Positions 2,953 through 32,000 of a DNA stretch of 32,000 nucleotides are shown in pieces. Source of the DNA: Candidatus Fimenecus sp. GTDB taxonomy: Bacteria; Bacillota; Clostridia; Oscillospirales; Acutalibacteraceae. Both the position numbers and the translations under genes were made by a program. The stretch spans positions 2,807-34,806 of the forward strand of contig JAZSDZ010000080.1 in the NCBI GenBank assembly GCA_045531435.1, read 5' to 3'. The notes under the pieces are model-generated. The model searched no databases. It was given only the letters and a program-made list of their open reading frames with translations, and was not told the DNA's origin. Positions within the stretch are counted from its first letter, which is position 1. Each line of letters starts with the position of its first letter.

Positions 2953-4251
2953 ATGATATCTGTATGGACTGACAATTCGGAGTTTAAGACTTTCCCGGAA
3001 TTAAAAAATGACATTAAAACGAGTGTTGCCGTAATCGGTGGTGGAATAACAGGACTTTTATGTGCTTATGAACTAAAACAAAAAGGTATAGATTGTGTTG
3101 TGCTTGAAGCAGACAGAATTTGTGAAGGTGTAACACAGAATACAACAGCAAAAATAACTTCTCAGCACGGTTTGATTTACGACAAACTCATTAGAAAATA
3201 TGGTATAGAAAAAGCACAGATGTATATTGATACTAATGAAAATGCGTTGAAAAAATATAAAGCAATGTGTAAAAATATTTCTTGTGATTTTGAAATTAAA
3301 GATAATTATGTTTATTCAGTAAATAATTCAAGAAAAATCAACGACGAACTTCATGCGTTAGTAAGATTAGGGTTTAATCCTGATTTTTGCACAGAAATTC
3401 CTGTGCCGATAGAAATTGCAGGTGCGATTAAATTCCCAAATCAGGCACAGTTCAATCCGTTGCGATTCCTATCATTTATCTCAAAAGGTCTGACTATTTA
3501 TGAAAAAACAAAGGTTATTGAAATTCGAGGAAAAAGGGCAATAACTGAAAAAGCAAAAATTACAGCCGATTATTTTATAGTGGCAACTCATTTCCCTTTT
3601 ATGAATAAATTTGGTGGATATTTTGTAAAGCTTTATCAGGAAAGAAGCTATGTGTTGGCATTACAGGGTGGTCCTAAAATTGACGGAATGTATGTTGATG
3701 AAGCAAAAAGTGGAATGTCTTTCAGAAATTATAAGAATTATCTTTTAGTAGGTGGTGGCGACCATCGTACAGGCAAGGATGGCGGAAATTATAGAGAGTT
3801 AAAAGCTTTTTCAGCTCTAAATTATCCCGAATATCCGATTAAATATCAGTGGGCAACACAGGATTGTATGAGCCTTGATTCTGTGCCGTATATAGGCAGG
3901 TATTCCAAGAAAATCCCGAATGTTTTTGTTGCAACAGGCTTCAATAAATGGGGAATGACATCTTCATTGGTATCAGCCCAACTGCTTTGTGATATGGTTT
4001 GTGGGCAAAAGAATGAGTATGAAGAAATTTTTTCACCATCACGAAGTGTGTTGACATTGCAATTACCAATAAACATTTTTGAGTCAACAGTAGGTCTTTT
4101 AACACCTTCTAAAAAACGATGTCCACATCTTGGATGCGCATTGAAATGGAATTCTGCTGAACACACTTGGGACTGTCCGTGCCACGGTTCAAGATTTACA
4201 GAGGATGGTAAACTCATCAATAACCCTGCAACAGATGACTTGAGCAAATAA
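2953..4251 (+). CDS. FAD-dependent oxidoreductase fused to a C-terminal Rieske [2Fe-2S] domain (YhfW-like architecture)
   Basis: N-terminal Rossmann motif VAVIGGGITGLLCAYEL. C-terminal Rieske motif CPHLGC...(15 aa)...CPCHGSRF. I prefer the ATG at 2953 (AGGTGA RBS 7 nt upstream) to the ORF-track Met at 2911, which has no RBS. Confidence 0.8.
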   Translation: MISVWTDNSEFKTFPELKNDIKTSVAVIGGGITGLLCAYELKQKGIDCVVLEADRICEGVTQNTTAKITSQHGLIYDKLIRKYGIEKAQMYIDTNENALKKYKAMCKNISCDFEIKDNYVYSVNNSRKINDELHALVRLGFNPDFCTEIPVPIEIAGAIKFPNQAQFNPLRFLSFISKGLTIYEKTKVIEIRGKRAITEKAKITADYFIVATHFPFMNKFGGYFVKLYQERSYVLALQGGPKIDGMYVDEAKSGMSFRNYKNYLLVGGGDHRTGKDGGNYRELKAFSALNYPEYPIKYQWATQDCMSLDSVPYIGRYSKKIPNVFVATGFNKWGMTSSLVSAQLLCDMVCGQKNEYEEIFSPSRSVLTLQLPINIFESTVGLLTPSKKRCPHLGCALKWNSAEHTWDCPCHGSRFTEDGKLINNPATDDLSK

Positions 4252-4343: not shown

Positions 4344-5651
4344 ATGAAAAAACGATTGTTAAAGATTTTATGTATTGTTTTATCCTTTGTAATAGTTATT
4401 ATTTCAATAACTTTCATGAAGAAGGATAAACCTGTAAATCAGGATTTCATTGAGAAAGAAAGTACAACTTCAGAAATGACACTTGAAGAAAGCACAACTG
4501 TTCAGGAAAATACAACTGAGGTGGAATCTACTACAGAAATAACTACTATAATTGAAACAACAACAGAAACAGCACCATTATTCACATATGCACCGGTATC
4601 AGCATCATCACCGGAATTAGAGAAACTTGTCAAGGAAGTTGCTGAAAAACATGGAGCAGTTGCTGTGCAGGTTGCTACAATTAAAGATGGTATGGTTTCT
4701 GCAACGGCTGAATATGGTTGGGCAGTTGCAAATGAGCGTCCGATAGAAACCGATACAAAAATGCGTATAGCTTCCCTTTCAAAAACACCTATCGGTATGG
4801 TGGTTTTTAAGCTTGTTGAGGAAGGAAAACTCAATATTGATACGGACATTTCTGAATATTTAGGTGTGTTGGTAAGACATCCTGATTATCCTGATATGCC
4901 GATTACAATAAGGATGTTATTGACACATACATCAGGTTTGACTGATAAGGGTTATCAGGATTCGCTGGAGAAGATACAAGACCATCTTTTATCACCTAAG
5001 GCTTATCAGGAAAAACCAGGTGAGAAATTCAGATACAATAACTATGGTTTCGGACTTGCAGCTACTATTTGCGAGTGCGTTACAAGAAAAAGTCTTAATA
5101 ACCTTGTAAAAGAGTATTTTCTTAATCCTATGGGTATAGAGGCATCTTATCTTGGAGGACAGCTTAATTCACAGAAACTTGCAACCATATATGACAGTGA
5201 GTGGAAAATAGGTTTAAGTGTCAAAAGACAGGCAATGCCAAAAACAGATAAAAATGTACCAGGTAGATATATGATGCTTTATGCAGGTGGACTTACAATC
5301 AGTGCAAGTGACCTTGCTAAACTGTTGACTATTCTTGTAAATGAGGGAATGTATAATGGTATGCAGCTTTTATCCCAAGAAAGTATTGACCAGATGCAGA
5401 CACCTCAATTGCCAAACAATTCAATACAAGGTATGCCTATAAAAAAGAAGGCTGGACTTTACAATCAGGAATATATGTATCACCATTCAGGTAGTGCATA
5501 TGGCACATACTCGTTCTATATGTATAATCCTGAAACAGATATTGGCGTAGTTGTCATTTCTACGGGAGCAAAATTATCAAGAGACCGTTACGGCACATAT
5601 TCTATATGTGGTGATATTGTTGATGGAATTATAAAACAGAATTTGCTATAA
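4344..5651 (+). CDS. Membrane-anchored beta-lactamase-fold serine hydrolase (class C / PBP-related family)
   Basis: N-terminal TM helix, a Thr/Glu-rich stalk (ESTT-type reiterations), then the S-x-x-K motif (ASLSKT) and the Y-x-N motif (YNNYGFG). Confidence 0.8.
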   Translation: MKKRLLKILCIVLSFVIVIISITFMKKDKPVNQDFIEKESTTSEMTLEESTTVQENTTEVESTTEITTIIETTTETAPLFTYAPVSASSPELEKLVKEVAEKHGAVAVQVATIKDGMVSATAEYGWAVANERPIETDTKMRIASLSKTPIGMVVFKLVEEGKLNIDTDISEYLGVLVRHPDYPDMPITIRMLLTHTSGLTDKGYQDSLEKIQDHLLSPKAYQEKPGEKFRYNNYGFGLAATICECVTRKSLNNLVKEYFLNPMGIEASYLGGQLNSQKLATIYDSEWKIGLSVKRQAMPKTDKNVPGRYMMLYAGGLTISASDLAKLLTILVNEGMYNGMQLLSQESIDQMQTPQLPNNSIQGMPIKKKAGLYNQEYMYHHSGSAYGTYSFYMYNPETDIGVVVISTGAKLSRDRYGTYSICGDIVDGIIKQNLL

Positions 5652-5684
5652 AAAAGTCGGTAGAGTAATTTCTACCGACTTTTT
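5651..5684. terminator. Bidirectional rho-independent terminator between convergent genes
   Basis: AAAAAGTCGGTAGA-gtaatt-TCTACCGACTTTTT, with an A-run and a T-run on either side. Confidence 0.85.
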
Positions 5685-21397: not shown

Positions 21398-22263
21398 CTA
21401 ATGAAATACAGACAAAAACAGAAATGATATATAATCAGGTTGTGTCTTTGGTTGAGCAGGGCAATTTCCCACACGGAGTTCTGGTGGAGTGTCAGAATTC
21501 TGCAGAGGGGGAGAGCTTCGCACACTTTATCGCAAATGCACTTGTTTGCAGGGGGGATAATAAGCCTTGTTCGGTCTGTCCTGACTGTATAAAAGCACAG
21601 GGTAAAGGGCATCCTGATATTTTCATTACAGATGGAATAAAAGGTAAAAGTAAGAATTTTACTGTGGATGCAGTCCGTGAAATACGCGATGATGCATTCG
21701 TTATTCCAAATGAAAGTGACAAAAAAATATACATACTGAAAAATGGTCACAATATGAATGAACAAGCACAGAATGCTATTCTTAAAATATTGGAAGAACC
21801 ACCATCATATGTATATTTCATAATAGTGACAGAATCAAAAAGTACAATGCTTGAAACTGTTCTTTCCCGTGTACAGATTTTTTCTATTTTAACTGATGAG
21901 GAAAGCTATACAGAAAAAGAGGCACAGGCTGTAAGTGGTATGGTAAAAGCATTGTTAAGTGTCAATGAGTTGGCATTGATGGAACAGACTGCGGTTTTCC
22001 AGAAAAACAATCAGTTTGCAAAATCAGTCCTTGTATTAATGACAGAGGTTTTTCGTGATGCACTTGTTAAAAAGAATGGTTTTACAAGAGAGTTTCGTTT
22101 TAAGAATGAAACTGATTCAATCTGCAATTCATTGACAGCAAAAGCAATTTTGCAGTTGATTTCGGCCTGTGATGAACTGATAGAATCCATTGACAGAAAT
22201 TGTAACAATAACTTGCTTCTTGTTCGTATGTGTTATGAATTCAAGCAAGCAATAGGTAGGTAA
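21394..22263 (+). CDS. holB: DNA polymerase III subunit delta' (HolB)
   Basis: Clamp-loader AAA+ fold with the Zn module CRGDNKPCSVCPDCIKAQ and the ILKILEEPP motif. ATGA overlap with darA, and conserved synteny. Confidence 0.85.
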   Translation: MTNEIQTKTEMIYNQVVSLVEQGNFPHGVLVECQNSAEGESFAHFIANALVCRGDNKPCSVCPDCIKAQGKGHPDIFITDGIKGKSKNFTVDAVREIRDDAFVIPNESDKKIYILKNGHNMNEQAQNAILKILEEPPSYVYFIIVTESKSTMLETVLSRVQIFSILTDEESYTEKEAQAVSGMVKALLSVNELALMEQTAVFQKNNQFAKSVLVLMTEVFRDALVKKNGFTREFRFKNETDSICNSLTAKAILQLISACDELIESIDRNCNNNLLLVRMCYEFKQAIGR

Positions 22264-22279
22264 GTAGGAGACATTATAA

Positions 22280-23143
22280 ATGATAGAGACAGTTGGAATA
22301 AGATTTAAAGAAGGCGGAAAAATCTACGATTTTGATGCAGATGGTAAAAACTTTAACAAGGGCGATTTTGCTATGGTTGAAACTGTACGTGGCATCGAAT
22401 GTGGTGAGGTAGCAAAGGCAAACCATGGTGTGAATGAGGATAATATTACAAAGCCTTTAAAGAAAGTTATCAGAGTTGCTACTGAGGATGATATTAAAAC
22501 TCTTGAAGAAAACAAAGAAAAAGAAAAGGAAGCATTTAAAATCTGCGAACAGAAGGTAGAGGCACATGGACTTCAAATGAGCCTTGTTGATGCTGAATAT
22601 ACATTTGACAGAAGCAAGCTTCTTTTCTATTTTACTGCTGATGGCAGAGTTGACTTCCGTGAACTTGTAAAGGATTTGGCATCTACATTCAAAACACGAA
22701 TTGAACTTCGTCAGATTGGTGCTCGTGATGAGTCAAGAATGGTTGGCGGTTTTGGCATTTGTGGCAGACCTTTCTGTTGTAATACATTCTTAACTGATTT
22801 TCAGCCTGTTTCAATTAAAATGGCAAAGGAGCAAGGACTTTCACTTAATCCTACAAAAATCAGCGGTACTTGCGGACGCCTTATGTGTTGTCTTAAATAT
22901 GAACAAGAAACTTATGAGCATCTTCTTCGTGTTACACCAAAAGTTGGTGCAATCGTTGACACATTTGACGGAAAAGGCAAGGTAATTGAAAATAACCTTA
23001 TTACCGGTATGTTAAAGGTTTGTCTTGACCGTCGCCCTGATGCTGCTCCACTCGTTATTCATCGTCATAGTGTGAAACTTATCAAAGATGCTCACATCAG
23101 AGTAGAAAAAGAGGAATTAGAGGCATTAAAAGGAATTGAGTAA
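22280..23143 (+). CDS. ricT: PSP1-domain regulatory iron-sulfur protein RicT (YaaT, stage 0 sporulation protein)
   Basis: Cys clusters GICGRPFCCNTFL and GTCGRLMCCLKYE, in the position after holB as in Bacillus. Confidence 0.85.
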   Translation: MIETVGIRFKEGGKIYDFDADGKNFNKGDFAMVETVRGIECGEVAKANHGVNEDNITKPLKKVIRVATEDDIKTLEENKEKEKEAFKICEQKVEAHGLQMSLVDAEYTFDRSKLLFYFTADGRVDFRELVKDLASTFKTRIELRQIGARDESRMVGGFGICGRPFCCNTFLTDFQPVSIKMAKEQGLSLNPTKISGTCGRLMCCLKYEQETYEHLLRVTPKVGAIVDTFDGKGKVIENNLITGMLKVCLDRRPDAAPLVIHRHSVKLIKDAHIRVEKEELEALKGIE

Positions 23144-23150
23144 AAAACAC

Positions 23151-23178
23151 TTGATTTTTCTTATTAATGTGCTACAAT
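23151..23178 (+). promoter_or_regulatory. Extended -10 sigma-A promoter for the ferredoxin gene
   Basis: TTGATT (23151-23156), 16-nt spacer ending in TGc, TACAAT (23173-23178). Confidence 0.5.
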
Positions 23179-23210
23179 GATACTATACCAAGAAAGGGAG
23201 GGTATATAAC

Positions 23211-23381
23211 ATGGCATATAAAATTACTGAAGACTGCATTTCATGTGGCGCTTGCGCAGCAGATTGTCCTGTAGAAGCTATTTCTGAAGGCGACGGCATC
23301 TATGTAATCGACGCTGATACATGCATCGATTGTGGTGCTTGTGCAGATAGTTGCCCTGTTTCAGCACCTGTAGCTGAATAA
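23211..23381 (+). CDS. fdx: Clostridial-type 2x[4Fe-4S] ferredoxin (56 aa, below the ORF-track cutoff)
   Basis: Hand translation: MAYKITEDCISCGACAADCPVEAISEGDGIYVIDADTCIDCGACADSCPVSAPVAE, with two CxxCxxCxxxCP motifs and a GGGAGG RBS upstream. The 74-aa minus-strand ORF at 23278-23502 is antisense to it and spurious. Confidence 0.9.
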   Translation: MAYKITEDCISCGACAADCPVEAISEGDGIYVIDADTCIDCGACADSCPVSAPVAE

Positions 23382-23396
23382 TTATAATAAAAAAAG

Positions 23397-23430
23397 AAAT
23401 CGCCGAGGTTAACGCCTTGGCGATTTTTTT
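23397..23430. terminator. Rho-independent terminator after the ferredoxin gene, usable from both sides
   Basis: TCGCCGAGG-ttaacg-CCTTGGCGA, preceded by an A-run and followed by TTTTTTT. It lies between the convergent fdx and MerR-family genes. Confidence 0.8.
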
Positions 23431-23482
23431 ACATAAAAATTTCTGTAAGTGACTATGTTTGCATGTAATTTTTACATGTTTC

Positions 23483-24295
23483 TCAACCAAGAGAAAATTC
23501 AAATAAAAACTTAAATATAATAAATAATGGATATACCATGCAGAAAAGAAGTGCCAACCAGCATATAACAGATAGTATTGTTAGCAGTATGTCAATTACC
23601 TTTGAGAGTTTTGGATATTTTTTTCTTAAAAACCTCATGAATAAGAAAAAAGGAAAAGCGATGACTGACGAGATAAAAGCAAAAAATACACAAGCGCCAA
23701 AATGTTCAAGAAAGGCTGAAAGTGTAATTTCGTTAGTTCGTAAACATCTTAAAAATGAAAGTGCCGAAAGGAGAAGAAACAGAGAAAGGATAACACCGAT
23801 TATACCAAATTTTTCTTTAATTTTTTTTAGATTTATAAAATAAAACATTTCTATAATATTGGTATAGTGGTCTATTTCGTTTTTGATAAAATCTTTCATT
23901 ATTTCATTAAAACCTTCACCTCTGCTTTCTCTGGTATTGATAATATGCCAAAAATAATCTTGGGGAAACTCTTTTTCATTTGAATTAGTTTCTTTAATTA
24001 ATTCACATACCTTGATTGCACCATTCAATTCGTCGATTTTCTCATGAAGACGATTAAGATTGTTTGTAATCGCAGTTTGTAAAGGCAATGAGCCATTGAA
24101 AATATTGTGTATATCAGCAATGGAAAGTCCCAGCTTTCGAAAAATAATGATTTTTTTAAGTTGCGTAATATCTTCATTACTGTATTCCCGATATCCATTT
24201 TCTTTTCTTACGGGAGAGACTAAACCCTCATGCTCATAAAATCGAATATTTGCACGTGAAACTTTTAATTCTTTTTCAACTTCTTGAATTTTCAT
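23483..24295 (-). CDS. MerR-family transcriptional regulator with three C-terminal transmembrane helices
   Basis: N-terminal MerR HTH (IQEVEKELKVSRANIRFYEHEGLVSPVRKENGYREYSNEDITQLKKIIIFRKLGLSIADI), a coiled-coil linker, then three hydrophobic helices (IIGVILSLFLLLSALSFL, FGACVFFAFISSVIAFPFFLFM, VIDILLTILSVICWLALLFCMVYPLFIIF). Confidence 0.8.
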   Translation of the reverse strand: MKIQEVEKELKVSRANIRFYEHEGLVSPVRKENGYREYSNEDITQLKKIIIFRKLGLSIADIHNIFNGSLPLQTAITNNLNRLHEKIDELNGAIKVCELIKETNSNEKEFPQDYFWHIINTRESRGEGFNEIMKDFIKNEIDHYTNIIEMFYFINLKKIKEKFGIIGVILSLFLLLSALSFLRCLRTNEITLSAFLEHFGACVFFAFISSVIAFPFFLFMRFLRKKYPKLSKVIDILLTILSVICWLALLFCMVYPLFIIFKFLFEFSLG

Positions 24296-24315
24296 TGTAT
24301 ACCTCCTTTTTAAAG

Positions 24316-24346
24316 ATTATAAGGTATAAACCAACTTTACAGTCAA
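24316..24346 (-). promoter_or_regulatory. Promoter of the MerR-family gene with a 19-nt spacer
   Basis: Minus strand: TTGACT, then the 19-nt spacer GTAAAGTTGGTTTATACCT, then TATAAT. The imperfect dyad TGTAAA-gttgg-TTTATA is centred in the spacer. Confidence 0.5.
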
Positions 24347-24437
24347 GTAATATTTTTAATTTTAAGAAAATTTTTGTTTATCAAGCACAGAAATAATCAA
24401 TTTCTTATTTTAAGTCTTCTAAATATAATATCTTATT

Positions 24438-24472
24438 AAAAAATAGTAAAGGGACGACACAGGCATCGTCCC
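24438..24472 (-). terminator. Rho-independent terminator ending the long minus-strand sugar operon
   Basis: Minus strand: GGGACGA-tgcctgtg-TCGTCCC followed by TTTACTATTTTTT. Confidence 0.75.
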
Positions 24473-24488
24473 AGTATAATGAATAATC

Positions 24489-25673
24489 TTATCCGAATAT
24501 ACTCAAATCAAAATTATTAGCAACAATCTGACCGCCTTCAAAGTTCGGGTGAAGCTTATCTCTGCCTAAAAGATCTTTCCTTGAACAATTTGGTTTGTTT
24601 TCGTCAATACAATAACTTGCCTGGTCATATACCATGTCAAAGCAATCTTTATTTTCCATAAGCAGACGGTTATATTCAAGTACCATAGCTTCTTTTTCAG
24701 GGTTTGAGTCGATGTCAAGACCAAAGTGAAGTACATTCATTGCAATAAATTTCTTACCGTGCTTATGTGCCTTATCTGCCAATTCCTTAACAGCGTTAAA
24801 AGCGTTTTCAGGAGTTGGCTTTTCATTTTTTGGTGCAGAAATCGTGCCGTATTGAAGAAAGTCATTTGTACCAAGTGCAAAAATTATGTATTCAGCATCG
24901 GAAAATCGCAAAGCATCATTTTCATATCTTTTTATTCCACTTATACCGAAAAGCCCGGGGCAGGGGAATCGTTTACTGAAATCCCTAAGTATTCTGTTTC
25001 CCATAATTGAACGATTGATAACTGCATATCTGCCCTTATATTCTTCACGGATTCGTTTTTCAAAGGCATTTGTCCAGAATCCTTGCTGAGTTATTGAATC
25101 TCCAAACATAACAATTGATGTTGCATTGTCATTGTTAAGCAACTCAACCGTATTGATAAGTGGAATCGGTTTGTGAAAACCCATTCCAAGGACTACTGTT
25201 GCAATTTTTCTTACAGTATCTCTTGGTCTTGGCTGATTTTCTGTGTAAGGAATTTTTGTATAATCACCTTTAACTGTAATCAGATTTACATTGTCAAGAA
25301 GATTACCACTACAAAGGTCGCCACTTATTACATAAATGCTGATACAAAAATATTCATCAACGGAGATGTCTAAATCAATAGGGTCAGTTATCACCATTTT
25401 GTTTTTGGCAAGTGTGAAGGACTCCTTTGAATTGACGGTGACAGTTTTATACAAACCATCGGTAAAAGTACCGTTTTTGTCACATTTAGCAACTGTAATA
25501 CCACCGATTTCAACATCGTTTTTACCGGGCCTATTGCAAATTTCAATTCGAAGTTTACTACCGCTTATGGCAGAATGGATAATGGTCCTGTAAGTCCTTT
25601 TGCACGATGGATAATAAAAATGTGAAAGTGCAGAGTGGGCTTGACCCCATACTTGTACCCATTTTTCAGACAT
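24489..25673 (-). CDS. Two-domain SGNH/GDSL carbohydrate esterase (N-terminal beta-sandwich plus SGNH domain)
   Basis: MFGDSITQQG (block I), ALGTNDF (block III), DKLHPN (block V). About 180 aa of N-terminal non-catalytic domain. The AAGGAG RBS overlaps the end of the GH35 gene. Confidence 0.8.
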   Translation of the reverse strand: MSEKWVQVWGQAHSALSHFYYPSCKRTYRTIIHSAISGSKLRIEICNRPGKNDVEIGGITVAKCDKNGTFTDGLYKTVTVNSKESFTLAKNKMVITDPIDLDISVDEYFCISIYVISGDLCSGNLLDNVNLITVKGDYTKIPYTENQPRPRDTVRKIATVVLGMGFHKPIPLINTVELLNNDNATSIVMFGDSITQQGFWTNAFEKRIREEYKGRYAVINRSIMGNRILRDFSKRFPCPGLFGISGIKRYENDALRFSDAEYIIFALGTNDFLQYGTISAPKNEKPTPENAFNAVKELADKAHKHGKKFIAMNVLHFGLDIDSNPEKEAMVLEYNRLLMENKDCFDMVYDQASYCIDENKPNCSRKDLLGRDKLHPNFEGGQIVANNFDLSIFG

Positions 25674-25685
25674 AATAAATTCTCC

Positions 25686-27494
25686 TTAACCTAAATTATG
25701 TGTATCAAGAATTCTAACTTCAGGATTTTTCATTCCAAGTGTTTCAAGTACAATAATTTCGTTTTCTTCTTTTAAAAGGCAACCCGGCAGATAAAGGGAT
25801 TTTTGTGGACCAACTTTCCAATATCTTCCAAGGTTAAAGCCGTTAACCCATACATAACCCTTGTCGAAGCCATCAAGATGCACGAAGCAATCAGCTTGTG
25901 AACTTGCTTTGAATGTGCCTTTGTAGAACATTGCACCATTATCTTTATTAAAGCTTTCAGCAGGTTTATATGTGAGCTTATCAAGGTTATCAAGAGGGAG
26001 CGTCCATACATCGTAACCCATCTGACGCTGATTTGCGATATAGATGTCAGAAAAGCCTTTTCTGTCCATCATTTTTTCGCCATAATTTACTCGTCCCATA
26101 GTGTCAACAAGAAGACCGATTTTCTTTTCGCCGTCAACTGCGCCGATAAACACTGTTGATGTGTCACTACTGTCTTTTGTAACACTCTTAAAGAGCGAGC
26201 CTAATGAAGGTTTGCCACGCTTTGTATATGTAGTACGGTCAATAAATTTTTTGTATTTATCATCAACATAAACGAAACCGAAATCGTGAATATCTCTAAT
26301 CATTAATGGAATAGGGTCATAATGGCCACGAATTATAGTTTCATAGTAAATCATACCAAAATTCTGACCGAAGTATTCCATACTTTCAGGCACAGGAATG
26401 CGATGCTTTTCACCGATTACATTAAGATTTTCAAAAAGAGAAGCTGACTCTGTAAGCTTAACTGTACCAATTTTCTGTAACTTTGGTGATGGTGGTAACT
26501 CTTGCATCTCCAGTCCCTGATGCTTATGTAAAAGCGCTCTGACTGCGTGATAAGCAGGAGTGTAATCACCATATTCGTTAAGTAAGGCACAATAATCATA
26601 ACTGGTTATTGTTGGTTCGTAAGCACAGGCAGGATTGTGATTTGCGCCTGCGTTGAAACCGAAGTTCGTGCCACCGTGGAACATATAGAAATTAAAACTT
26701 GCACCACAGTCGAGGAATTCCTTAACTTCCTTAACAACAGACTGTGGTTTTCTTGTGTGATGCTTATCTCTCCAATGGTCAAACCAACCACACCAGAATT
26801 CACCACACATATTAGGTCCGTCATTCTCGAAATTCTTAAGACAGTTAAAAGCAGTTTTTGCCCTTGAACCAAAGTTAAGAACCTTGTAAATGTGTGGTAA
26901 TGAACCACCTGAAAGCATATTTTTCCAGTTTCCGTCAGATGTGAAAAGGGGAACATCAATGCCACATTCTCTTGTTAAATCCTCAACATATTTAAGGTAA
27001 TCTTTGTCGTTACCATAAGATCCGTATTCATTTTCCACCTGCATCATAATAATATTTCCACCATTTGACTGTAAAAGTGGACAAAGTCTTCCTAAAAGTT
27101 CCTTGTAGTAACGTTCAATACAGGTAAGGAAATCAGGATACATACAGCGAATCTGCATGTTTTTATCTTTTAAAAGCCACGCAGGAAGTCCGCCGAAATC
27201 CCATTCAGCACATATATATGGACCGGGTCTTACAATGCAGTAAAGACCGACCTTCTGAGCAGTTTTTACGAATCTTTCAATGTCTAAAATTCCGTCAAAA
27301 TGGAATTCACCGGGCTTTGGTTCGTGAAGATTCCAACAAGTATATGTTTCAACTGTATTGAATCCTGCCAACTTTAGTTTTGTAAGTCTGTCCTCCCAAT
27401 AATCAGGCACAGTACGAAAATAGTGCATAGCACCTGAATAAATTTTGAAAGGCTTACCATCCATATAAAATTCCTTGTTTTTAATCTCAAACAC
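25686..27494 (-). CDS. Glycoside hydrolase family 35 beta-galactosidase
   Basis: FKIYSGAMHYFRTVPDYWEDRLTKLKLAGFNTVETY, RPGPYICAEWDFGGLPAWLL, MMQVENEYGSYG (acid/base Glu context). I prefer the GTG start at 27494 (GGAGGA 8 nt upstream, 4 nt after the upstream stop) to the overlapping ORF-track Met at 27521. Confidence 0.88.
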   Translation of the reverse strand: MFEIKNKEFYMDGKPFKIYSGAMHYFRTVPDYWEDRLTKLKLAGFNTVETYTCWNLHEPKPGEFHFDGILDIERFVKTAQKVGLYCIVRPGPYICAEWDFGGLPAWLLKDKNMQIRCMYPDFLTCIERYYKELLGRLCPLLQSNGGNIIMMQVENEYGSYGNDKDYLKYVEDLTRECGIDVPLFTSDGNWKNMLSGGSLPHIYKVLNFGSRAKTAFNCLKNFENDGPNMCGEFWCGWFDHWRDKHHTRKPQSVVKEVKEFLDCGASFNFYMFHGGTNFGFNAGANHNPACAYEPTITSYDYCALLNEYGDYTPAYHAVRALLHKHQGLEMQELPPSPKLQKIGTVKLTESASLFENLNVIGEKHRIPVPESMEYFGQNFGMIYYETIIRGHYDPIPLMIRDIHDFGFVYVDDKYKKFIDRTTYTKRGKPSLGSLFKSVTKDSSDTSTVFIGAVDGEKKIGLLVDTMGRVNYGEKMMDRKGFSDIYIANQRQMGYDVWTLPLDNLDKLTYKPAESFNKDNGAMFYKGTFKASSQADCFVHLDGFDKGYVWVNGFNLGRYWKVGPQKSLYLPGCLLKEENEIIVLETLGMKNPEVRILDTHNLG

Positions 27495-27498
27495 CAGG

Positions 27499-27897
27499 TT
27501 ATTCCTCCAATGTATTTGCATATTTCTGAATCATATCAAGAATCAACTGTTCGTTTTCATTGAAAATCTTATCACATTCACGGATTTTTTCTTCAGTTTC
27601 AAGGTTTTCTTCATTAACGAGAACAACATAATAAGAATACGCTGTCTTTAAGTTTTCACAAAGAATTTCAGGAAGCAATCCACCGATTTTCTTAACTGCC
27701 TTTTCCACTTCGCCACAAAAAGCAATATTGATGAAAAATCTTGTGTGACCACCATCTTTTATTTCCTTGTAGTATGTCATAATTGTGTTATGTGGTTCAG
27801 GCACTTTTTCAAGTCTCCACAAATCCCATAAAAATTCTAATTTTTCCTGTTCTTCTGTTAGTGGCTCTTTCTTTTTAAATAAATCAAAAAGTCCCAT
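27499..27897 (-). CDS. Small cytoplasmic protein, possibly DMP19/DUF4375-like
   Basis: 132 aa. DGGHTRFFIN resembles the NGGfxQff.N motif of the DMP19 family, followed by AVKKIGG and a C-terminal helical CDKIFNENEQLILDMIQKY. The assignment is from memory of the family pattern only. Confidence 0.35.
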   Translation of the reverse strand: MGLFDLFKKKEPLTEEQEKLEFLWDLWRLEKVPEPHNTIMTYYKEIKDGGHTRFFINIAFCGEVEKAVKKIGGLLPEILCENLKTAYSYYVVLVNEENLETEEKIRECDKIFNENEQLILDMIQKYANTLEE

Positions 27898-27946
27898 GAA
27901 TTAAATCTCCTTCTTTTCGTTATTTGGCTCACCTGAAAGGGGAATT

Positions 27947-27962
27947 GTCACCGTATGGTGAC
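27947..27962 (-). other. Intercistronic hairpin between the transporter and the downstream genes
   Basis: GTCACC-gtat-GGTGAC, a perfect 6-bp stem. A second TCACC at 27929-27933 could pair with the same GGTGA arm instead. Confidence 0.4.
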
Positions 27963-27969
27963 TGAGAAG

Positions 27970-29427
27970 TTATTTCTCTATATCATATTTCTTTGACATT
28001 TTGCTCAATGCTTCTTCTCTTGTGATTTTGCCTGTATTACAGTCAATCATTAATTGAACATCCTTGTCCTTCAAATCATAGAAAAGCCATGTGATAAATG
28101 CTAAAAGACCACCGATTGCAGGAATAAGCGTATAGATTATCCAAAGTATATTAAGTGCGTGAGGTGTCTGTGTAACTCCACTCTGTTCCAATTCCTGGAA
28201 TGAGCCCACCTCAACCACTTTCCAGCCTACTGAATCAAGACCGAGAATGAAAAGCCCCAAGGCACCTGAAATTGAGCTTGTAAGCTTTGCCATAAATGTC
28301 TGAACAGCAAATGTGATACCTTTTGCTTCAGTATTTGTTTTGAATCGTCCATATTCAGCACAGTCAGGTGTGAACATACACATTTCAAGGCTGACAATTG
28401 CCAGAGGAACTGAACGGAGCGTAAAGAGAATTATGTAAACAACAGCATTACCATAGCCCAAAAGCCAGATAATAACGCTGAGTATTACATAGAGCAATAA
28501 GCAAATCTGATTTACCTTCATCTTGTCATATTTACGGATAATTTTCGGTAACAGTAATGAAACGACAAGCTGTGGAATTGTGCCGATTGCACCGACAAGC
28601 AAGGAGAATAACGCACTGTCAAAGAGGTAATATGAAACATAAAGAGTGAATGCGTTACCAATGTTGAGTGCAGAATAGAAGAAAACACCAAGATTATATA
28701 CAAGCAGATATTTGTTTCTGATAAGATATGAAAACATTCTTTTGATTGTAAATGTTTCTTCGCTTTCAGCGTGATAGCGTTCTTTAAGTCTGAATGAAGC
28801 AGGTGTCATTAAAGCGAATGCAATTACACAGATGATAATTGAGATTGTGCCGTAATTCATGCCAACCTCTTCGCTGATAAGAACAGTTGTAAGTGCAGAT
28901 GTAATACCAACCCCTGCATATGTAGTAATACTTTTGTATGACTGAATAGTGTTTCTCTCGTCAATACTCTGACTCATAGATGTAAGAATACCGAAAATAG
29001 GAACATCGCATAAGGTGTAAGCAGTATCCCATAATATGTAGGCAACGGCAAACCACACCAATTTAACTGTTTCAGATGAGTTGGACGGAATAACAAAGGT
29101 CAGTATTGTTGCAAGAGGAATGAGTATGGTGGAAATGCGTATCCAAGGCAGGTATTTCTTTCCACTCTTGAACTTAATCAAATCAAATATCGCACCAAAC
29201 AAAGTATCGTTTACAGCATCCCACACTTTTACAATAAGTATAATTGTTGCTGATTTGATAGGGTTAATGCCTAAAAACAAAAGATAGGTTGTAAGACATA
29301 CATTGAAAAGTGTGTAAATCATATTCTGACCGGCAAAATATGAATAATAGCTTGCTCTCTCAATGGGTTCAGTTGACCAACCGCCTTTGGTCACAAAAAG
29401 ATTTTTTGCTTTTGATGTAAGGTTCAT
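27970..29427 (-). CDS. GPH-family (glycoside-pentoside-hexuronide:cation) sugar symporter
   Basis: 12-TM MFS-like protein with the family N-terminal motif VKVWDAVNDTLFGAIFD. The start is set at MNLTSK (29427), 7 nt after AAGGAG; the ORF-track Met at 29433 is only 1 nt from the RBS. Confidence 0.85.
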   Translation of the reverse strand: MNLTSKAKNLFVTKGGWSTEPIERASYYSYFAGQNMIYTLFNVCLTTYLLFLGINPIKSATIILIVKVWDAVNDTLFGAIFDLIKFKSGKKYLPWIRISTILIPLATILTFVIPSNSSETVKLVWFAVAYILWDTAYTLCDVPIFGILTSMSQSIDERNTIQSYKSITTYAGVGITSALTTVLISEEVGMNYGTISIIICVIAFALMTPASFRLKERYHAESEETFTIKRMFSYLIRNKYLLVYNLGVFFYSALNIGNAFTLYVSYYLFDSALFSLLVGAIGTIPQLVVSLLLPKIIRKYDKMKVNQICLLLYVILSVIIWLLGYGNAVVYIILFTLRSVPLAIVSLEMCMFTPDCAEYGRFKTNTEAKGITFAVQTFMAKLTSSISGALGLFILGLDSVGWKVVEVGSFQELEQSGVTQTPHALNILWIIYTLIPAIGGLLAFITWLFYDLKDKDVQLMIDCNTGKITREEALSKMSKKYDIEK

Positions 29428-29444
29428 ATACATTCTCCTTATTC

Positions 29445-29502
29445 TGATAATTCACGTGCCGTTAGGCACATATCGCAAATCACGACGGTGATTTATATCG
29501 CT
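29445..29502 (-). repeat. Downstream copy of the direct repeat flanking the orphan gene (two hairpin+ATATCGC units)
   Basis: 29452-29475 is identical (24/24) to 30300-30323, and 29474-29502 matches 30358-30386 at 27/29. It contains the hairpins GTGCC-gtta-GGCAC and AAATCAC-gacg-GTGATTT, each followed by ATATCGC. Confidence 0.85.
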
Positions 29503-30193
29503 ATAATTTTAGTGACTTTTGCCACTCATCTATTCTATGATTTCTTTTATTTATGAACTCTATTGTATTATTCTTATATTTTTCGTATTCATCTTTTGTT
29601 TTAGGTAATGGATTATATGCAAAATTATCAAATGGATGTAAAAATTTTATACTTGTATAATCATCTGTGACGAGGTCTTGAAAAAAGAAAAAGTCAACAT
29701 AACCTTTAAAATTACAAAACAAATCAAAAAAATCTTTATAACCTAATAAACAATCAGTCATTGGACTTTCTATATTTAGATAGTATCGACGGATACACTC
29801 AAGAGTCAAATCAATTCTATCATTTATTCTGTGATTTAAACCTCGTTCACCGTTTATCGTCTTTTTACCTTCTATCTTATTACATGGAAAAATCGTCATT
29901 CCACCAATTGTATATGACAATTTGACGAACTCATTTATTTCCTTATCAGGTATTTGTTTGATTATTTCTTGCGTTCTTTTCCACTTGCAATAAGTATGTA
30001 TAATGGAATCACTAGAAAAAACAAAACAACCAGCATCAGAAAAATTTTTCAAGTCTTCATCTAAGTTCAATTTTTGACCATTTGGTAATACCTTACTCCA
30101 TAAATATCGGTGATATTTCTTTAGAGTAGCACTATGTGCATCCGGGTCTTTTCCAAAGGAATCGTTACGAAAGTCATATGTAATATCTATCAT
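29501..30193 (-). CDS. Orphan hypothetical protein (230 aa), AT-rich
   Basis: Intact ORF with GAGG 5 nt upstream of the ATG. Conserved-looking segments are KDPDAHSATLKKYHRYLWSKVLPNG and TINGERGLNHRINDRIDLTLECIRRYY, but I can assign no family. No signal peptide or TM helix. Confidence 0.6.
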   Translation of the reverse strand: MIDITYDFRNDSFGKDPDAHSATLKKYHRYLWSKVLPNGQKLNLDEDLKNFSDAGCFVFSSDSIIHTYCKWKRTQEIIKQIPDKEINEFVKLSYTIGGMTIFPCNKIEGKKTINGERGLNHRINDRIDLTLECIRRYYLNIESPMTDCLLGYKDFFDLFCNFKGYVDFFFFQDLVTDDYTSIKFLHPFDNFAYNPLPKTKDEYEKYKNNTIEFINKRNHRIDEWQKSLKL

Positions 30194-30210
30194 ATTAGCC
30201 TCAATTAAAA

Positions 30211-30386
30211 TATTTTAACGATATACTCGCTTACGCTCGTGCGATATAATCTCATTCGATTGCGATATTTTTATTGTCACAAAAACGATATGATATAAAT
30301 CACGTGCCGTTAGGCACATATCGTGTCGCAAGACATATCGCGTACCTCTGTATATATCGCAATTCACGACAGTGATTTATATCGCT
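30211..30386. repeat. Motif array: 4x CGATAT then 4x ATATCG (plus strand), the latter each preceded by a tetraloop mini-hairpin; includes the upstream copy of the direct repeat (30291-30386)
   Basis: CGATAT at 30219, 30242, 30263 and 30286. ATATCG at 30318, 30335, 30354 and 30379. Hairpins are GTGCC-gtta-GGCAC (30304-30317), TGTC-gcaa-GACA (30324-30335), a weak GTAC-ctct-GTAT (30342-30353) and TCAC-gaca-GTGA (30364-30375). A CACGTG palindrome at 30301-30306 sits near the orientation switch. Confidence 0.85.
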
Positions 30387-31540
30387 GAATGTGTTTGCAC
30401 TAAAAGTGCAACACATTCTACATGGTCCGTATGTGGAAACATATCCACAGGCTGAATTTTCTTTACTTTATATCCGTTTTTGGAAAGATACATCAAATCT
30501 CTTGCAAGGGTTTCAGGATTACAGCTTACATAAACAACCTTTTTCGGACTGAGCTTAATAAGAGAAGACAAAAACGGAATGTCACTTCCGGCACGGGCTG
30601 GGTCCATAATAACTGCATCAATCTGTTCGTTGTTATTTGCTAAATCAACCATAAATTTTCCTGCATCGGCTGCGAAAAACTTAATATTTTCTATGCCGTT
30701 GAGTTTTGCATTTTCCTTTGCATCCTTTACGGCATCTTTATTTATTTCAACACCGAGAACACTTTTCACATTCTTACTTGCAATAAGACCGATTGTACCT
30801 GTGCCACAATAAGCATCGATAATTCTTTCACTGCCATCAAAATCAGCATATTCAAGTGCTTTGTTGTAAAGAATTTCTGTCTGCACAGGGTTAATCTGAT
30901 AAAAAGCCTTTGGTGAAATACGGAATTTAAGTCCACAAAGCTCCTCAGTGATTTTTCCGTCACCATAAAGCACTTCACTTTTATCACCAAGCACCATACT
31001 TGTAAATTTATTGTTTACATTCTGCACAATTGTAGTAATTTCAGGATGTCTGCCAAGAAGTGCATTGACAAAAGAACGTTTTGACGGAAACTGTGGTGTT
31101 GAAGTCACAAGAACTACCATAACCTCACCACTTTTAAAGCCAGTTTTAACTAAAACATGTCTTAAAAAGCCTTGTCTTGTGTTTTCATCATAAGGCTTCA
31201 GTTTAAAGCTCTTCATCAGTTTTTTTACTGTATTTGCAATTTCATCAGCTTTTGTGTCTGTCAGCATACAACGTTCAATATCAACAATTTTATGAGTTGA
31301 TGACTGATAAACACCTGTGACAGTTTGTCCGTTACGACCGCGACCAAATGCGTACTGTGCTTTGTTTCGGTAATTATATGGTTTTTCCATTCCGATAATT
31401 TCTTCAATATGACAAAACCTGCCTAAAAGTCTGATAACTTTAACTTGTTTATGTCGTAACTGTTCTTCATATGAAAGATTTAATAACTGACATCCACCAC
31501 ACTTTTTTGCATGTGGACAAATTTGTTTTGATTTATTCAT
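30377..31540 (-). CDS. TrmA/RlmC/RlmD-family RNA (uracil-5)-methyltransferase with an N-terminal Fe-S cysteine cluster and no TRAM domain
   Basis: CPHAKKCGGCQ at the N-terminus, SAM motif DAYCGTGTIGL, IMDPARAG, catalytic Cys context YVSCNPETLARD, and a C-terminal HVECVALL. Confidence 0.85.
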   Translation of the reverse strand: MNKSKQICPHAKKCGGCQLLNLSYEEQLRHKQVKVIRLLGRFCHIEEIIGMEKPYNYRNKAQYAFGRGRNGQTVTGVYQSSTHKIVDIERCMLTDTKADEIANTVKKLMKSFKLKPYDENTRQGFLRHVLVKTGFKSGEVMVVLVTSTPQFPSKRSFVNALLGRHPEITTIVQNVNNKFTSMVLGDKSEVLYGDGKITEELCGLKFRISPKAFYQINPVQTEILYNKALEYADFDGSERIIDAYCGTGTIGLIASKNVKSVLGVEINKDAVKDAKENAKLNGIENIKFFAADAGKFMVDLANNNEQIDAVIMDPARAGSDIPFLSSLIKLSPKKVVYVSCNPETLARDLMYLSKNGYKVKKIQPVDMFPHTDHVECVALLVQTHSAI

Positions 31541-31542
31541 AA

Positions 31543-31857
31543 TTATCCTATTCTTCTACCATTTTTTATTTCGATTTTGCCAAAGAAAGGCACCTTGATA
31601 TATCCTGTGAAAGTATCGTTATGAATTTCAACTGAAACATCAACAATCATTTTGCCCATAAGGTCAATTTCGGCTTTGCCCGACAGACGGTTGCCATCTT
31701 CTTTGATGTTATAAACTCTGAAATTGGGAAGCTTTTTGAGAGATGGGACAGTAACGGTAAAATCATATTCACCATTATTATCAGTGATTTCCACAATTGC
31801 ACTGCCACTTATTACAGATGTTTCAATATCACCAGTCCATTTTCCTAATCCTATCAT
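31543..31857 (-). CDS. Small hypothetical protein (104 aa, predicted beta-rich)
   Basis: Intact ORF with an AAGGAG RBS. Its stop is 2 nt before the methyltransferase ATG, so the two are probably co-transcribed. No family recognised. Confidence 0.55.
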   Translation of the reverse strand: MIGLGKWTGDIETSVISGSAIVEITDNNGEYDFTVTVPSLKKLPNFRVYNIKEDGNRLSGKAEIDLMGKMIVDVSVEIHNDTFTGYIKVPFFGKIEIKNGRRIG

Positions 31858-31893
31858 TTCAAAGGTCTCCTTAACATTAATGCATATAACATA

Positions 31894-31922
31894 ATTTTAT
31901 CATTATTTACAAATAATGTAAA
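31894..31922 (-). promoter_or_regulatory. Promoter of the small-ORF/methyltransferase unit with an operator-like perfect palindrome in the spacer
   Basis: Minus strand: TTTACA, 17-nt spacer, TAAAAT. The palindrome CATTATTT-ac-AAATAATG (31901-31918) fills the spacer and touches the -35 element. Confidence 0.45.
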
Positions 31923-31967
31923 GCAAAAAAACAGTCCTGTTTATTCTCCTTTTTTAAACACATTCCA

Positions 31968-31996
31968 TTGACAATGGTGAAAAATAGGAGTAAAAT
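31968..31996 (+). promoter_or_regulatory. Candidate sigma-A promoter firing out of the right window edge
   Basis: TTGACA (31968-31973), 17-nt spacer, TAAAAT (31991-31996). The target gene lies outside the window. Confidence 0.35.
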
Positions 31997-32000
31997 AATA

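Follow-up and report, generated by a model that had tools for sequence, protein, structure and literature searches.

Gut-1 has been, to our knowledge, an orphan structured motif without a gene association since 2010, and the 23S rRNA intervening sequences that encode S23p (PF05635) proteins have been suspected of being selfish elements since the 1990s, although we know of no way in which they move. Gut-1 was proposed as a free-standing small RNA without gene association; it consists of hairpins separated by GUGAAAU or GUGAUAU, comes from human-gut metagenomes only, and no function has been assigned to it (Weinberg et al. 2010, PMC2864571). Here we analyze a 32,000-nt stretch of DNA, hereafter the window, from Candidatus Fimenecus sp., a Clostridia bacterium of the ruminant gut (contig JAZSDZ010000080.1, positions 2,807 to 34,806), in which a gene of the DUF6994 family, bracketed by arrays of Gut-1-like hairpins, lies between a gene for a 23S rRNA methyltransferase and a gene for a sugar transporter. 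We consider it somewhat probable (roughly 55%) that positions 29464-30372 are a small gene cassette that was inserted between these two genes and not inherited with them, and that is gained and lost by recombination between forward arrays.

In the direction of the genes (minus strand), the locus reads from the methyltransferase stop through a forward array of four units (F1), an inverted array with four ATATCG (R), DUF6994 and a second forward array of two units (F2) to the transporter. An earlier note, made from the letters of this DNA alone, had described a gene between long direct repeats, and the repeats are real: TCACGTGCCGTTAGGCACATATCG occurs exactly twice in the window (29452-29475 and 30300-30323, 24/24 identical), and a 29-mer at 29474-29502 matches 30358-30386 at 27 of 29 positions, with no other copy in the window. 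None of 100 shuffles produced even one match to either block. The two blocks correspond to the outermost units, first and last, of a single modular array that carries two additional middle units in its upstream copy. The direct repeat arises because the cassette, which ends in its own 3' F array, follows immediately on another F array at the stop of the upstream gene. The start of each repeat at the stop codon of the preceding minus-strand gene was also borne out, both stops lying in or adjoining CGATATAA. The last codons and TAA stop of the methyltransferase gene (..SAI, then stop) fall within the conserved start of F1 (TTCAG CGATAT AA), the stop inside the first hexamer, and the TAG of DUF6994 abuts the CGATAT AA of F2. 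The hexamer ATATCG/CGATAT is found ten times in 29470-30384, in a pattern of four forward, four inverted and two forward, and 25 times in the whole window against 11.3 expected, a count reached by 0 of 100 shuffles; no other hexamer makes a spaced array of four copies within the window. At 28.6% G+C, the DUF6994 open reading frame (ORF) ranks last among the window's 22 ORFs that encode 150 aa or more (mean 35.5%, standard deviation 2.6), so the AT-richness pointed out before stands, but the contrast had been overstated, as the methyltransferase gene has 35.9% G+C and not 47%; the transporter gene has 37.2%.

When species-representative genomes were scanned with the transporter protein, 80 loci came up, all of them from Acutalibacteraceae or Ca. 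Fimenecus metagenome-assembled genomes and, where the source is named, mostly from ruminant guts. Transporter identity to the window is 74-92% in 79 of these genomes and 64% at the remaining locus; loci are given here as L numbers. The insertion that the note had suspected found its counterpart in the closest relative, L012, the methyltransferase and transporter of which are 94% and 92% identical (aa) to those of the window. Blastn aligned window positions 21979-29463 and 30373-31998 collinearly with L012, where the 909 bp between them (29464-30372) are absent. The junction in L012 is CGATATAAATCA followed by GACATTAGGAG, and the edges in the window are CGATATAAATCA followed by CTGTCG on the left and GAATTATCA followed by GAATAAGGAG on the right; the breakpoints are ambiguous because four nucleotides, ATCA, are shared by L012 and the window edges. 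L012 is a true empty-site allele, and the locus shows an insertion/empty-site polymorphism. Among the roughly 80 species-level genomes, DUF6994 is intact at the transporter locus only in the window, L093, L001-3, L004-9 and L020, in the last of which it lies downstream of the transporter; L015 retains a C-terminal remnant, and about 75 of the 80 species have no DUF6994 there. L016 has a solo F array at a site that is filled in relatives, and so does L025 by comparison with L021. The cassettes of the window and of L093, a metagenome relative, are about 98% identical at the nucleotide level, and the adjoining transporter genes about 88% overall, with 70-98% per 60-nt block; the change starts at F2. 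The cassette is more similar than its flanks between diverged genomes, which speaks for recent exchange.

The same scaffold occurs with a different cargo at several other, non-homologous gene ends. The order F-R-gene-F recurs with a PF05635 gene, which encodes a four-helix bundle ('23S rRNA intervening sequence protein', Avd-like): F-R-PF05635-F downstream of the transporter in L021; R-PF05635-F in the same position in L015, where the upstream F is degenerate; R-PF05635-F upstream of a methyltransferase gene in L050; and F-R-PF05635 directly behind TRAM-type methyltransferase genes in L101, L102 and L103, in which the array start encodes the C-terminal ..T-x-SAI and stop of these array-bearing methyltransferases. 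In L104 the gene lies behind a histidine kinase gene, and a perfect 83-nt direct repeat of F flanks R and PF05635. Duplicated F arrays flank the insert, as perfect copies in L104. Arrays stand in inverted orientation on both sides of the PF05635 ORF in L015, L021, L050 and L104, and upstream only in L101-L103. The R array of the window aligns with those associated with PF05635 (L021, L015, L101, L104) and is homologous to them. PF05635 adjoins DUF6994 in L001 and L020, in the order PF05635 then DUF6994, and a PF05635 remnant is found in L083, so that decay remnants of both cargo genes exist. The PF05635 protein has a great number of relatives, often on short contigs: 5707 proteins pass E<=1e-10, and identity is 78-93% for over 100 of these. 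The repeat blocks, for which the note had proposed a search elsewhere, are consequently not private to this locus, and in the sequence covered they are not scattered as REP elements would be: in about 0.9 Mb of related loci, arrays of at least four hexamers occur only at methyltransferase, transporter and cassette junctions, the only further clusters being two of three hexamers (L027 and L079), and every R array seen precedes a cassette gene. No array exists elsewhere in the window. The F-array pattern had no match in viral contigs and only three in JGI metagenomes.

A second array family, with the linker ATGAATT (close to the GUGAAAU of Gut-1), has the same layout and accompanies a 52-53% identical PF05635 variant. 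Such arrays lie at 4636-4769 in L015, at 1763-1821, 3415-3474 and 4987-5120 in L020, at 1432-1490 in L021, and in L037, L051 and L083. The first linker of this family gives the TGA stop of the TRAM-type methyltransferase gene; one or four units are present in the genomes examined, and none in others.

Array structure was analyzed on 53 units from 13 sources (12 loci and the window), by regular expressions and shuffles. Every unit consists of the hexamer CGATAT and, immediately behind this linker, a hairpin of 3-7 bp; best stems average 4.6 bp, compared with 3.2 bp in shuffled units, and none of 200 shuffles attained 4.6 bp. Loops mostly have the form UNAC, with TGAC, TTAC and TAAC as the most frequent sequences. 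Across genomes the linker is constant and the stems vary by double changes that preserve pairing, both in the first hairpin (AAATCAC/GTGATTT, AAATCAT/ATGATTT, AAATCCC/GGGATTT, AAATTCC/GGAATTT) and in the last (GTGCC/GGCAC, GTTTCC/GGAAAC, GTTGC/GCAAC, GCTTTGC/GCAAAGC). As RNA, F1 folds at -36.1 kcal/mol, and F1 and R together form one long imperfect palindrome with side hairpins (-52.6 kcal/mol in the window, -63.0 in L021). Covarying stems, fixed linkers and mostly UNAC loops imply that the arrays act as folded single strands, either RNA or single-stranded DNA, the two being indistinguishable here because G-U pairs are nearly absent from the stems; the strand-specific loops favor the sense strand as the one that folds. 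Units have been both gained and lost. L093 retains all four units downstream of DUF6994, so F2 of the window has lost two middle units; arrays shrink by deletion between linkers, as in this F2, and grow by tandem duplication, as in F1 of L001, which has three near-identical units.

The Rfam model of Gut-1 (RF01706) aligned over its positions 1-77 with F2 (29444-29514, minus strand; 25.9 bits, E 0.014), with F1 (30292-30387, minus strand; 20.1 bits) and with the L021 array (32.4 bits). Shared with Gut-1 are three or more short covarying hairpins with a repeated conserved heptamer linker (GUGAAAU/GUGAUAU, compared with GCGAUAU here), and the published Gut-1 seed sequences contain F arrays followed by inverted AUAUCAC arrays, which is the F-then-R layout. 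On the other hand, the linker differs by one or two bases, and the arrays described here abut stop codons and flank cassette genes. As all three scores are below the gathering score, we treat the arrays as a Gut-1-like variant and not as a member of the Rfam family.

Three other assignments were dropped. AATCGAATGAGATT (30240-30260), taken for a 3'-end remnant of PF05635, is a regular R-array unit by comparison with L015, L021 and L101. An integron attC site, suggested by one loop reading GTTAGGC/GCCTAAC, disagreed with the loops of relatives, which differ (TTAC or TGAC). A transporter leader or riboswitch was discarded because the identical type of array precedes non-transporter genes and a terminator.

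The gene itself is not the family-less orphan that it had been taken for: its product matches Pfam DUF6994 (PF22507) over all 226 profile positions (1-226) with 285.5 bits (cutoff 27; E 4.1e-85). The family comprises 1509 representatives of 50%-identity clusters at E<=1e-3, mostly stand-alone proteins of 230-250 aa, and the residues D7, D18, D62, D125, D128 and E132, invariant in an alignment of 50 sequences, are all kept in the window protein. DUF6994 is not a housekeeping protein. Structure prediction, proposed in the note, gave a confident AlphaFold (AF2) model from 50 homologues (pLDDT 96.3), but its best matches were not significant: the top three in the PDB were chains of BrxU (7p9k/7p9m; GmrSD type IV; E 0.26-1.6, TM 0.21), and two DUF262 proteins ranked 3-4 in BFVD at E about 2, with nothing significant in that database. 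According to the Pfam curators (PMC11701544), the family has an HNH-like beta-beta-alpha core in which Ala takes the place of the catalytic His; the BrxU matches weakly agree with this in direction, without proving it. A sequence-profile search of the PDB gave no match, nor did PADLOC (which has no model for DUF6994), PHROGs or NCBIfam. In other taxa, the surroundings of the gene are mobile or resemble defence islands, with neighbors such as Fic, BrxC/PglY, an M78 peptidase with DUF4411, a DUF4011 helicase and a resolvase. For DUF6994 as a cargo, a role in defence or in targeting nucleic acids appears probable. In two of three contexts from other taxa a small upstream ORF abuts or overlaps the gene; these are the family-less ORFs at 5694-6008 of L010 (104 aa) and 5364-5999 of L095 (211 aa), both outside Acutalibacteraceae. 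A variable partner before DUF6994, either such an ORF or PF05635 (L001, L020), suggests a two-gene unit. In L010, which belongs to another Clostridia lineage, a structured-looking GC-rich leader (5540-5680) precedes the 104-aa ORF and DUF6994.

Table 1. Positions of the genes, arrays and array parts at the DUF6994 locus, numbered on the window.
Feature	Position	Strand	Basis or remark
GPH/MFS_2 sugar:cation symporter, conserved downstream neighbor	27970..29433	-	PF13347 1.5e-49, TIGR00792
F2 array, downstream direct-repeat copy, two units, then transporter ribosome-binding site (AAGGAG)	29444..29502	-	Rfam Gut-1
F2 linkers	29495, 29470		
F2 unit bodies	29476-29494, 29456-29469		
909-bp segment missing from empty-site allele L012	29464..30372		edges ambiguous within shared ATCA
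GTGATTTATATC, arm of perfect 12-nt inverted repeat	29488..29499		partner GATATAAATCAC at 30292-30303
DUF6994 (PF22507) gene, 230 aa, putative cassette cargo	29501..30193	-	
R array, four inverted hexamers (30291-30219), then GAGG ribosome-binding site and DUF6994 ATG	30194..30291	-	
R array CGATAT	30219, 30242, 30263, 30286	+	spacing 23/21/23, units between
F1 array, upstream direct-repeat copy, four CGATAT + hairpin units	30292..30386	-	Rfam Gut-1, hexamer count, RNA fold
F1 ATATCG linkers	30379, 30354, 30335, 30318	+	
F1 unit bodies	30360-30378, 30341-30353, 30324-30334, 30304-30317		
RlmD/RumA-type 23S rRNA (uracil-C5) methyltransferase, 387 aa, no TRAM domain	30377..31540	-	TIGR00479 rumA 1.5e-123, PF05958

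The true start of the transporter gene is probably its second ATG (29427), 7 nt after the ribosome-binding site. The earlier statement that inverted repeats are lacking has to be corrected: the 12-nt pair of Table 1 is 100% complementary and encloses R and DUF6994, and a further 12-nt inverted repeat (30372-30383 with 30292-30303) closes the F1 array. The enclosing pair and the ATCA are both inside arrays and may simply mirror array symmetry.

The proposed cassette would consist of the inverted R array carrying the ribosome-binding site, a single cargo gene, DUF6994, and a 3' F array of CGATAT-linked mini-hairpins. It might be gained, lost and exchanged by recombination within F arrays, which could be homologous or catalyzed by a factor encoded elsewhere, and its entry would duplicate the F array. 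A promoter scan found nothing convincing in R, and a terminator scan found just two weak terminator-like hairpins without proper U-tracts. As the arrays bear no terminator, the cassette could presumably sit inside an operon without silencing the downstream gene.

Several observations weigh against this proposal. As the note had already remarked for integrases and transposases, no integrase, recombinase, transposase or reverse transcriptase was identified by Pfam among the 22 ORFs of at least 150 aa and the two small ORFs adjoining the locus, and no circular or excised form was observed. The note had anticipated a clean excision leaving one copy of the repeat, and this is not what the nearest empty site looks like: L012 has no array at all, just CGATATAAATCA with the ATCA microhomology, which is more in keeping with a virgin target or an imprecise deletion than with excision from one F to the other, and single arrays are those of L016 and L025. 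F1 and F2 of the window are not identical (four and two units), and neither they nor the L021 array reach the Gut-1 gathering threshold of 50 bits (20-32 bits). The array counts cover this neighborhood and a few other contigs. No arrays surround DUF6994 in other taxa (L010, L095, L098), and the fold match to BrxU is not significant. Finally, transfer of the cassette between related genomes would need no more than homologous recombination within the conserved genes on either side, and such recombination does take place, since the transporter gene is an identity mosaic between the window and L093.

This last point belongs to the alternative that survives best, although we regard it as doubtful: the arrays would be RNA-level punctuation only (for instance 3'-end stabilizers, processing sites or insulators between cistrons), each small gene bringing its own, and would have no share in mobility, while the cassette would spread among related genomes solely by ordinary homologous recombination of the flanks. 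In its favor, the arrays are placed on the sense strand exactly between a stop codon and the next ribosome-binding site, their UNAC loops are strand-specific, and they lack a U-tract. The 70-98% mosaic of the transporter gene attests to active flank recombination, no recombinase is nearby, and in other species many unrelated cargo genes occupy the gap between the methyltransferase and transporter genes and have no arrays. Nevertheless, the F-R-gene scaffold stands behind host genes as different as those of the transporter, of a histidine kinase and of two paralogous methyltransferases with 40% identity, and homology of the flanks therefore cannot explain its spread. The array, moreover, supplies the last codons and the stop of host genes, and the 83-nt perfect duplicate of F in L104 points to duplication at entry.

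That gap (L004-L092) is a general hot spot, most contents of which lack arrays. Depending on the species it holds a PNP_UDP_1 phosphorylase, DUF7225, an esterase-like protein, several family-less ORFs of 115-216 aa or a protein that by eye is ASCH-like. In L013 (about 3720-3900) and L039 (about 4800-4960) it contains a GC-rich element of about 170 nt (ATAGGCTCCACCCTTGAGGGG ... CCCCTCGTAGGGGGAAGGC), which may be a miniature inverted-repeat transposable element or a structured RNA and is unrelated to the hexamer arrays.

We consider improbable an explanation in which DUF6994 is a free-standing homing-type endonuclease that cleaves alleles lacking the cassette close to the methyltransferase stop, with repair of the double-strand break then copying the gene into the site ('intronless homing') and leaving the flanking repeats as by-products. 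The HNH-like core reported by Pfam, the GmrSD/BrxU-type nucleases among the best fold matches, the intergenic presence or absence at one site with a clean empty allele, the low G+C content, the lack of a transposase and a cassette more similar than its flanks between genomes would all suit such an enzyme. However, the arrays and the insertion geometry are also found with PF05635 alone, which has no nuclease fold; DUF6994 lies elsewhere in array-less, defence-island-like contexts and not between conserved gene pairs; and the fold matches are non-significant (E 0.26, TM 0.21), with the catalytic His replaced by Ala according to the Pfam paper (PMC11701544).

Very little speaks for the absence of any insertion, that is, for an ancestral order methyltransferase-DUF6994-transporter from which DUF6994 was lost many times, with the repeats as a duplicated cis-regulatory leader of the transporter operon. 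The order DUF6994-array-transporter is indeed common to three lineages, with DUF6994 74-79% and the transporter 80-85% identical to those of the window. The upstream neighbor, on the contrary, differs in each: the methyltransferases of the window and L004 are the 40% identical paralogues mentioned above, and in L001 the place is taken by the gene of a large serine recombinase, joined to the remnant of a methyltransferase 3' end. As the upstream genes are not orthologous, vertical inheritance with losses is unlikely. The position of DUF6994 downstream of the transporter in L020, its absence from about 75 of 80 species, the higher identity of the cassette (98%) than of the flank (about 88%) and arrays found away from any transporter also disagree with an ancestral arrangement. 

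The serine recombinase of L001 (3-1424; Resolvase, Recombinase and Zn_ribbon_recom domains) reads at its 3' end into the remnant of a methyltransferase C-terminus (..VESVALLTLSSI, then stop) just before the F array; the 3' end of the methyltransferase gene there seems to have been the insertion site of an integrative element. A similar serine-recombinase sequence lies upstream of the transporter in L035 and possibly in L028. In L047, L062 and L064 a window-type 387-aa methyltransferase (90-94%) is located beside a GH35 gene, inverted, 2-4 kb downstream of the transporter; the lineage of the window and L012 thus differs by an inversion or rearrangement with ends near array sites.

That the repeats are a generic dispersed element resembling repetitive extragenic palindromes (REP) and bacterial interspersed mosaic elements (BIME), bracketing the gene by coincidence, is very improbable, for although the units are modular and variable in number, the F-R inverted doublets form long palindromes as in REPINs and PF05635 relatives are extremely numerous and often on short contigs, the window has no other array, arrays of at least four hexamers are confined, in about 0.9 Mb of related loci, as described above, the R arrays seen all precede cassette genes, and no RAYT-type gene was seen.

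A few features of the window lie apart from the cassette. The transporter stop is followed by a hairpin, GTCACC-ATAC-GGTGAC, without hexamer linkers. Between the transporter gene and that of the GH35 beta-galactosidase, and overlapping the latter, is a 132-aa AT-rich ORF (27499-27897, minus strand; 32% G+C) that matches weakly to DMP19-like (DNA mimic) proteins and AbiJ_NTD3 and to nothing else; a true DMP19 gene is found near the PF05635 cassette of L103. The single match at the Rfam gathering level in the window is a tRNA (2754-2826), just upstream of which the palindrome CGATATATCG (2733-2744) carries the hexamer on both strands back to back, probably by chance.

Beyond the locus itself, we suggest tentatively that Gut-1-type arrays are insertion and recombination sites of an unrecognized class of minimal gene cassettes in gut Clostridia. 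As a possibility no stronger than this, each would enclose a single small gene with an array on either side, inverted at the 5' end and direct at the 3' end, land precisely on the host stop and give it a new one. Such cassettes would be mobilized without a recombinase of their own, perhaps by an Avd-like PF05635 protein acting in trans; alternatively, an RNA or single-stranded DNA intermediate might move them, which would explain the perfect flanking repeats, resembling long terminal repeats, of the 83-nt pair in L104. Full-text literature searches for DUF6994, Gut-1 and PF05635/S23p gave just the Pfam update, the motif catalogue of 2010, the paper on the Coxiella intervening sequence, DGR papers and a few in which the PF05635 protein is named a single time; in those read, such arrays are not connected with gene cassettes. 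If such a class exists, the orphan Gut-1 motif would acquire a function and would be tied to the puzzle of how S23p-encoding 23S rRNA intervening sequences move. The locus and its relatives unite Gut-1-like arrays and PF05635 in a single architecture that recurs, with clean states in which the site is empty, holds a solo array, is filled or has decayed; these make the question of mobility testable. They also give the DUF6994 family (about 1,500 clusters, with nuclease-like features and defence-island neighbors) a defined mobile context, and illustrate how an operon can take up small accessory genes, here between housekeeping and sugar-transporter genes, without terminators.

Compared with known mobile elements, the cassette differs from insertion sequences and transposons, as no transposase was found in it or in the window (the same 22 ORFs and two small ORFs). 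With REP/BIME/REPIN-RAYT systems it shares a short conserved motif 5' of a hairpin, inverted doublets forming long palindromes and a single flanked gene; here, in contrast, there is no HUH/Y1 transposase, the stems differ from unit to unit, and the available sequence has no dispersed high copy number. Integron cassettes need IntI and a single attC hairpin. Like them, the units described here are promoter-poor and carry a single gene, their 3' site is conserved by folding and not by sequence, they occur in tandem (PF05635 then DUF6994 in L001 and L020), and their sites may be empty or filled; unlike them, they have no IntI in the window, a string of 3-7 bp hairpins (2-5, by eye) in place of one long bulged attC hairpin, and an extra inverted 5' array. 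As for the cargo, GmrSD/BrxU proteins are the best though weak fold matches of DUF6994, for which the Pfam description gives an HNH-like core, and its homologues have defence-island-like neighbors, whereas DUF6994 is a stand-alone protein of 230 aa without a DUF262 domain and with the catalytic His reportedly replaced. A further comparison is with the 23S rRNA intervening sequences of Leptospira and Coxiella that carry an S23p/PF05635 ORF (PMC4990558). The cassettes here are located at the 3' ends of protein genes and not in rRNA helix 25 or 45, their borders are arrays of hexamer-linked hairpins instead of one 28-bp stem, and the window copy has DUF6994 in place of PF05635. Both, on the other hand, are small, low in G+C, sporadic and selfish-looking, with a single small ORF, complementary or inverted borders and a mobility enzyme known for neither, and the sister cassettes in relatives of the window carry exactly the PF05635 family.

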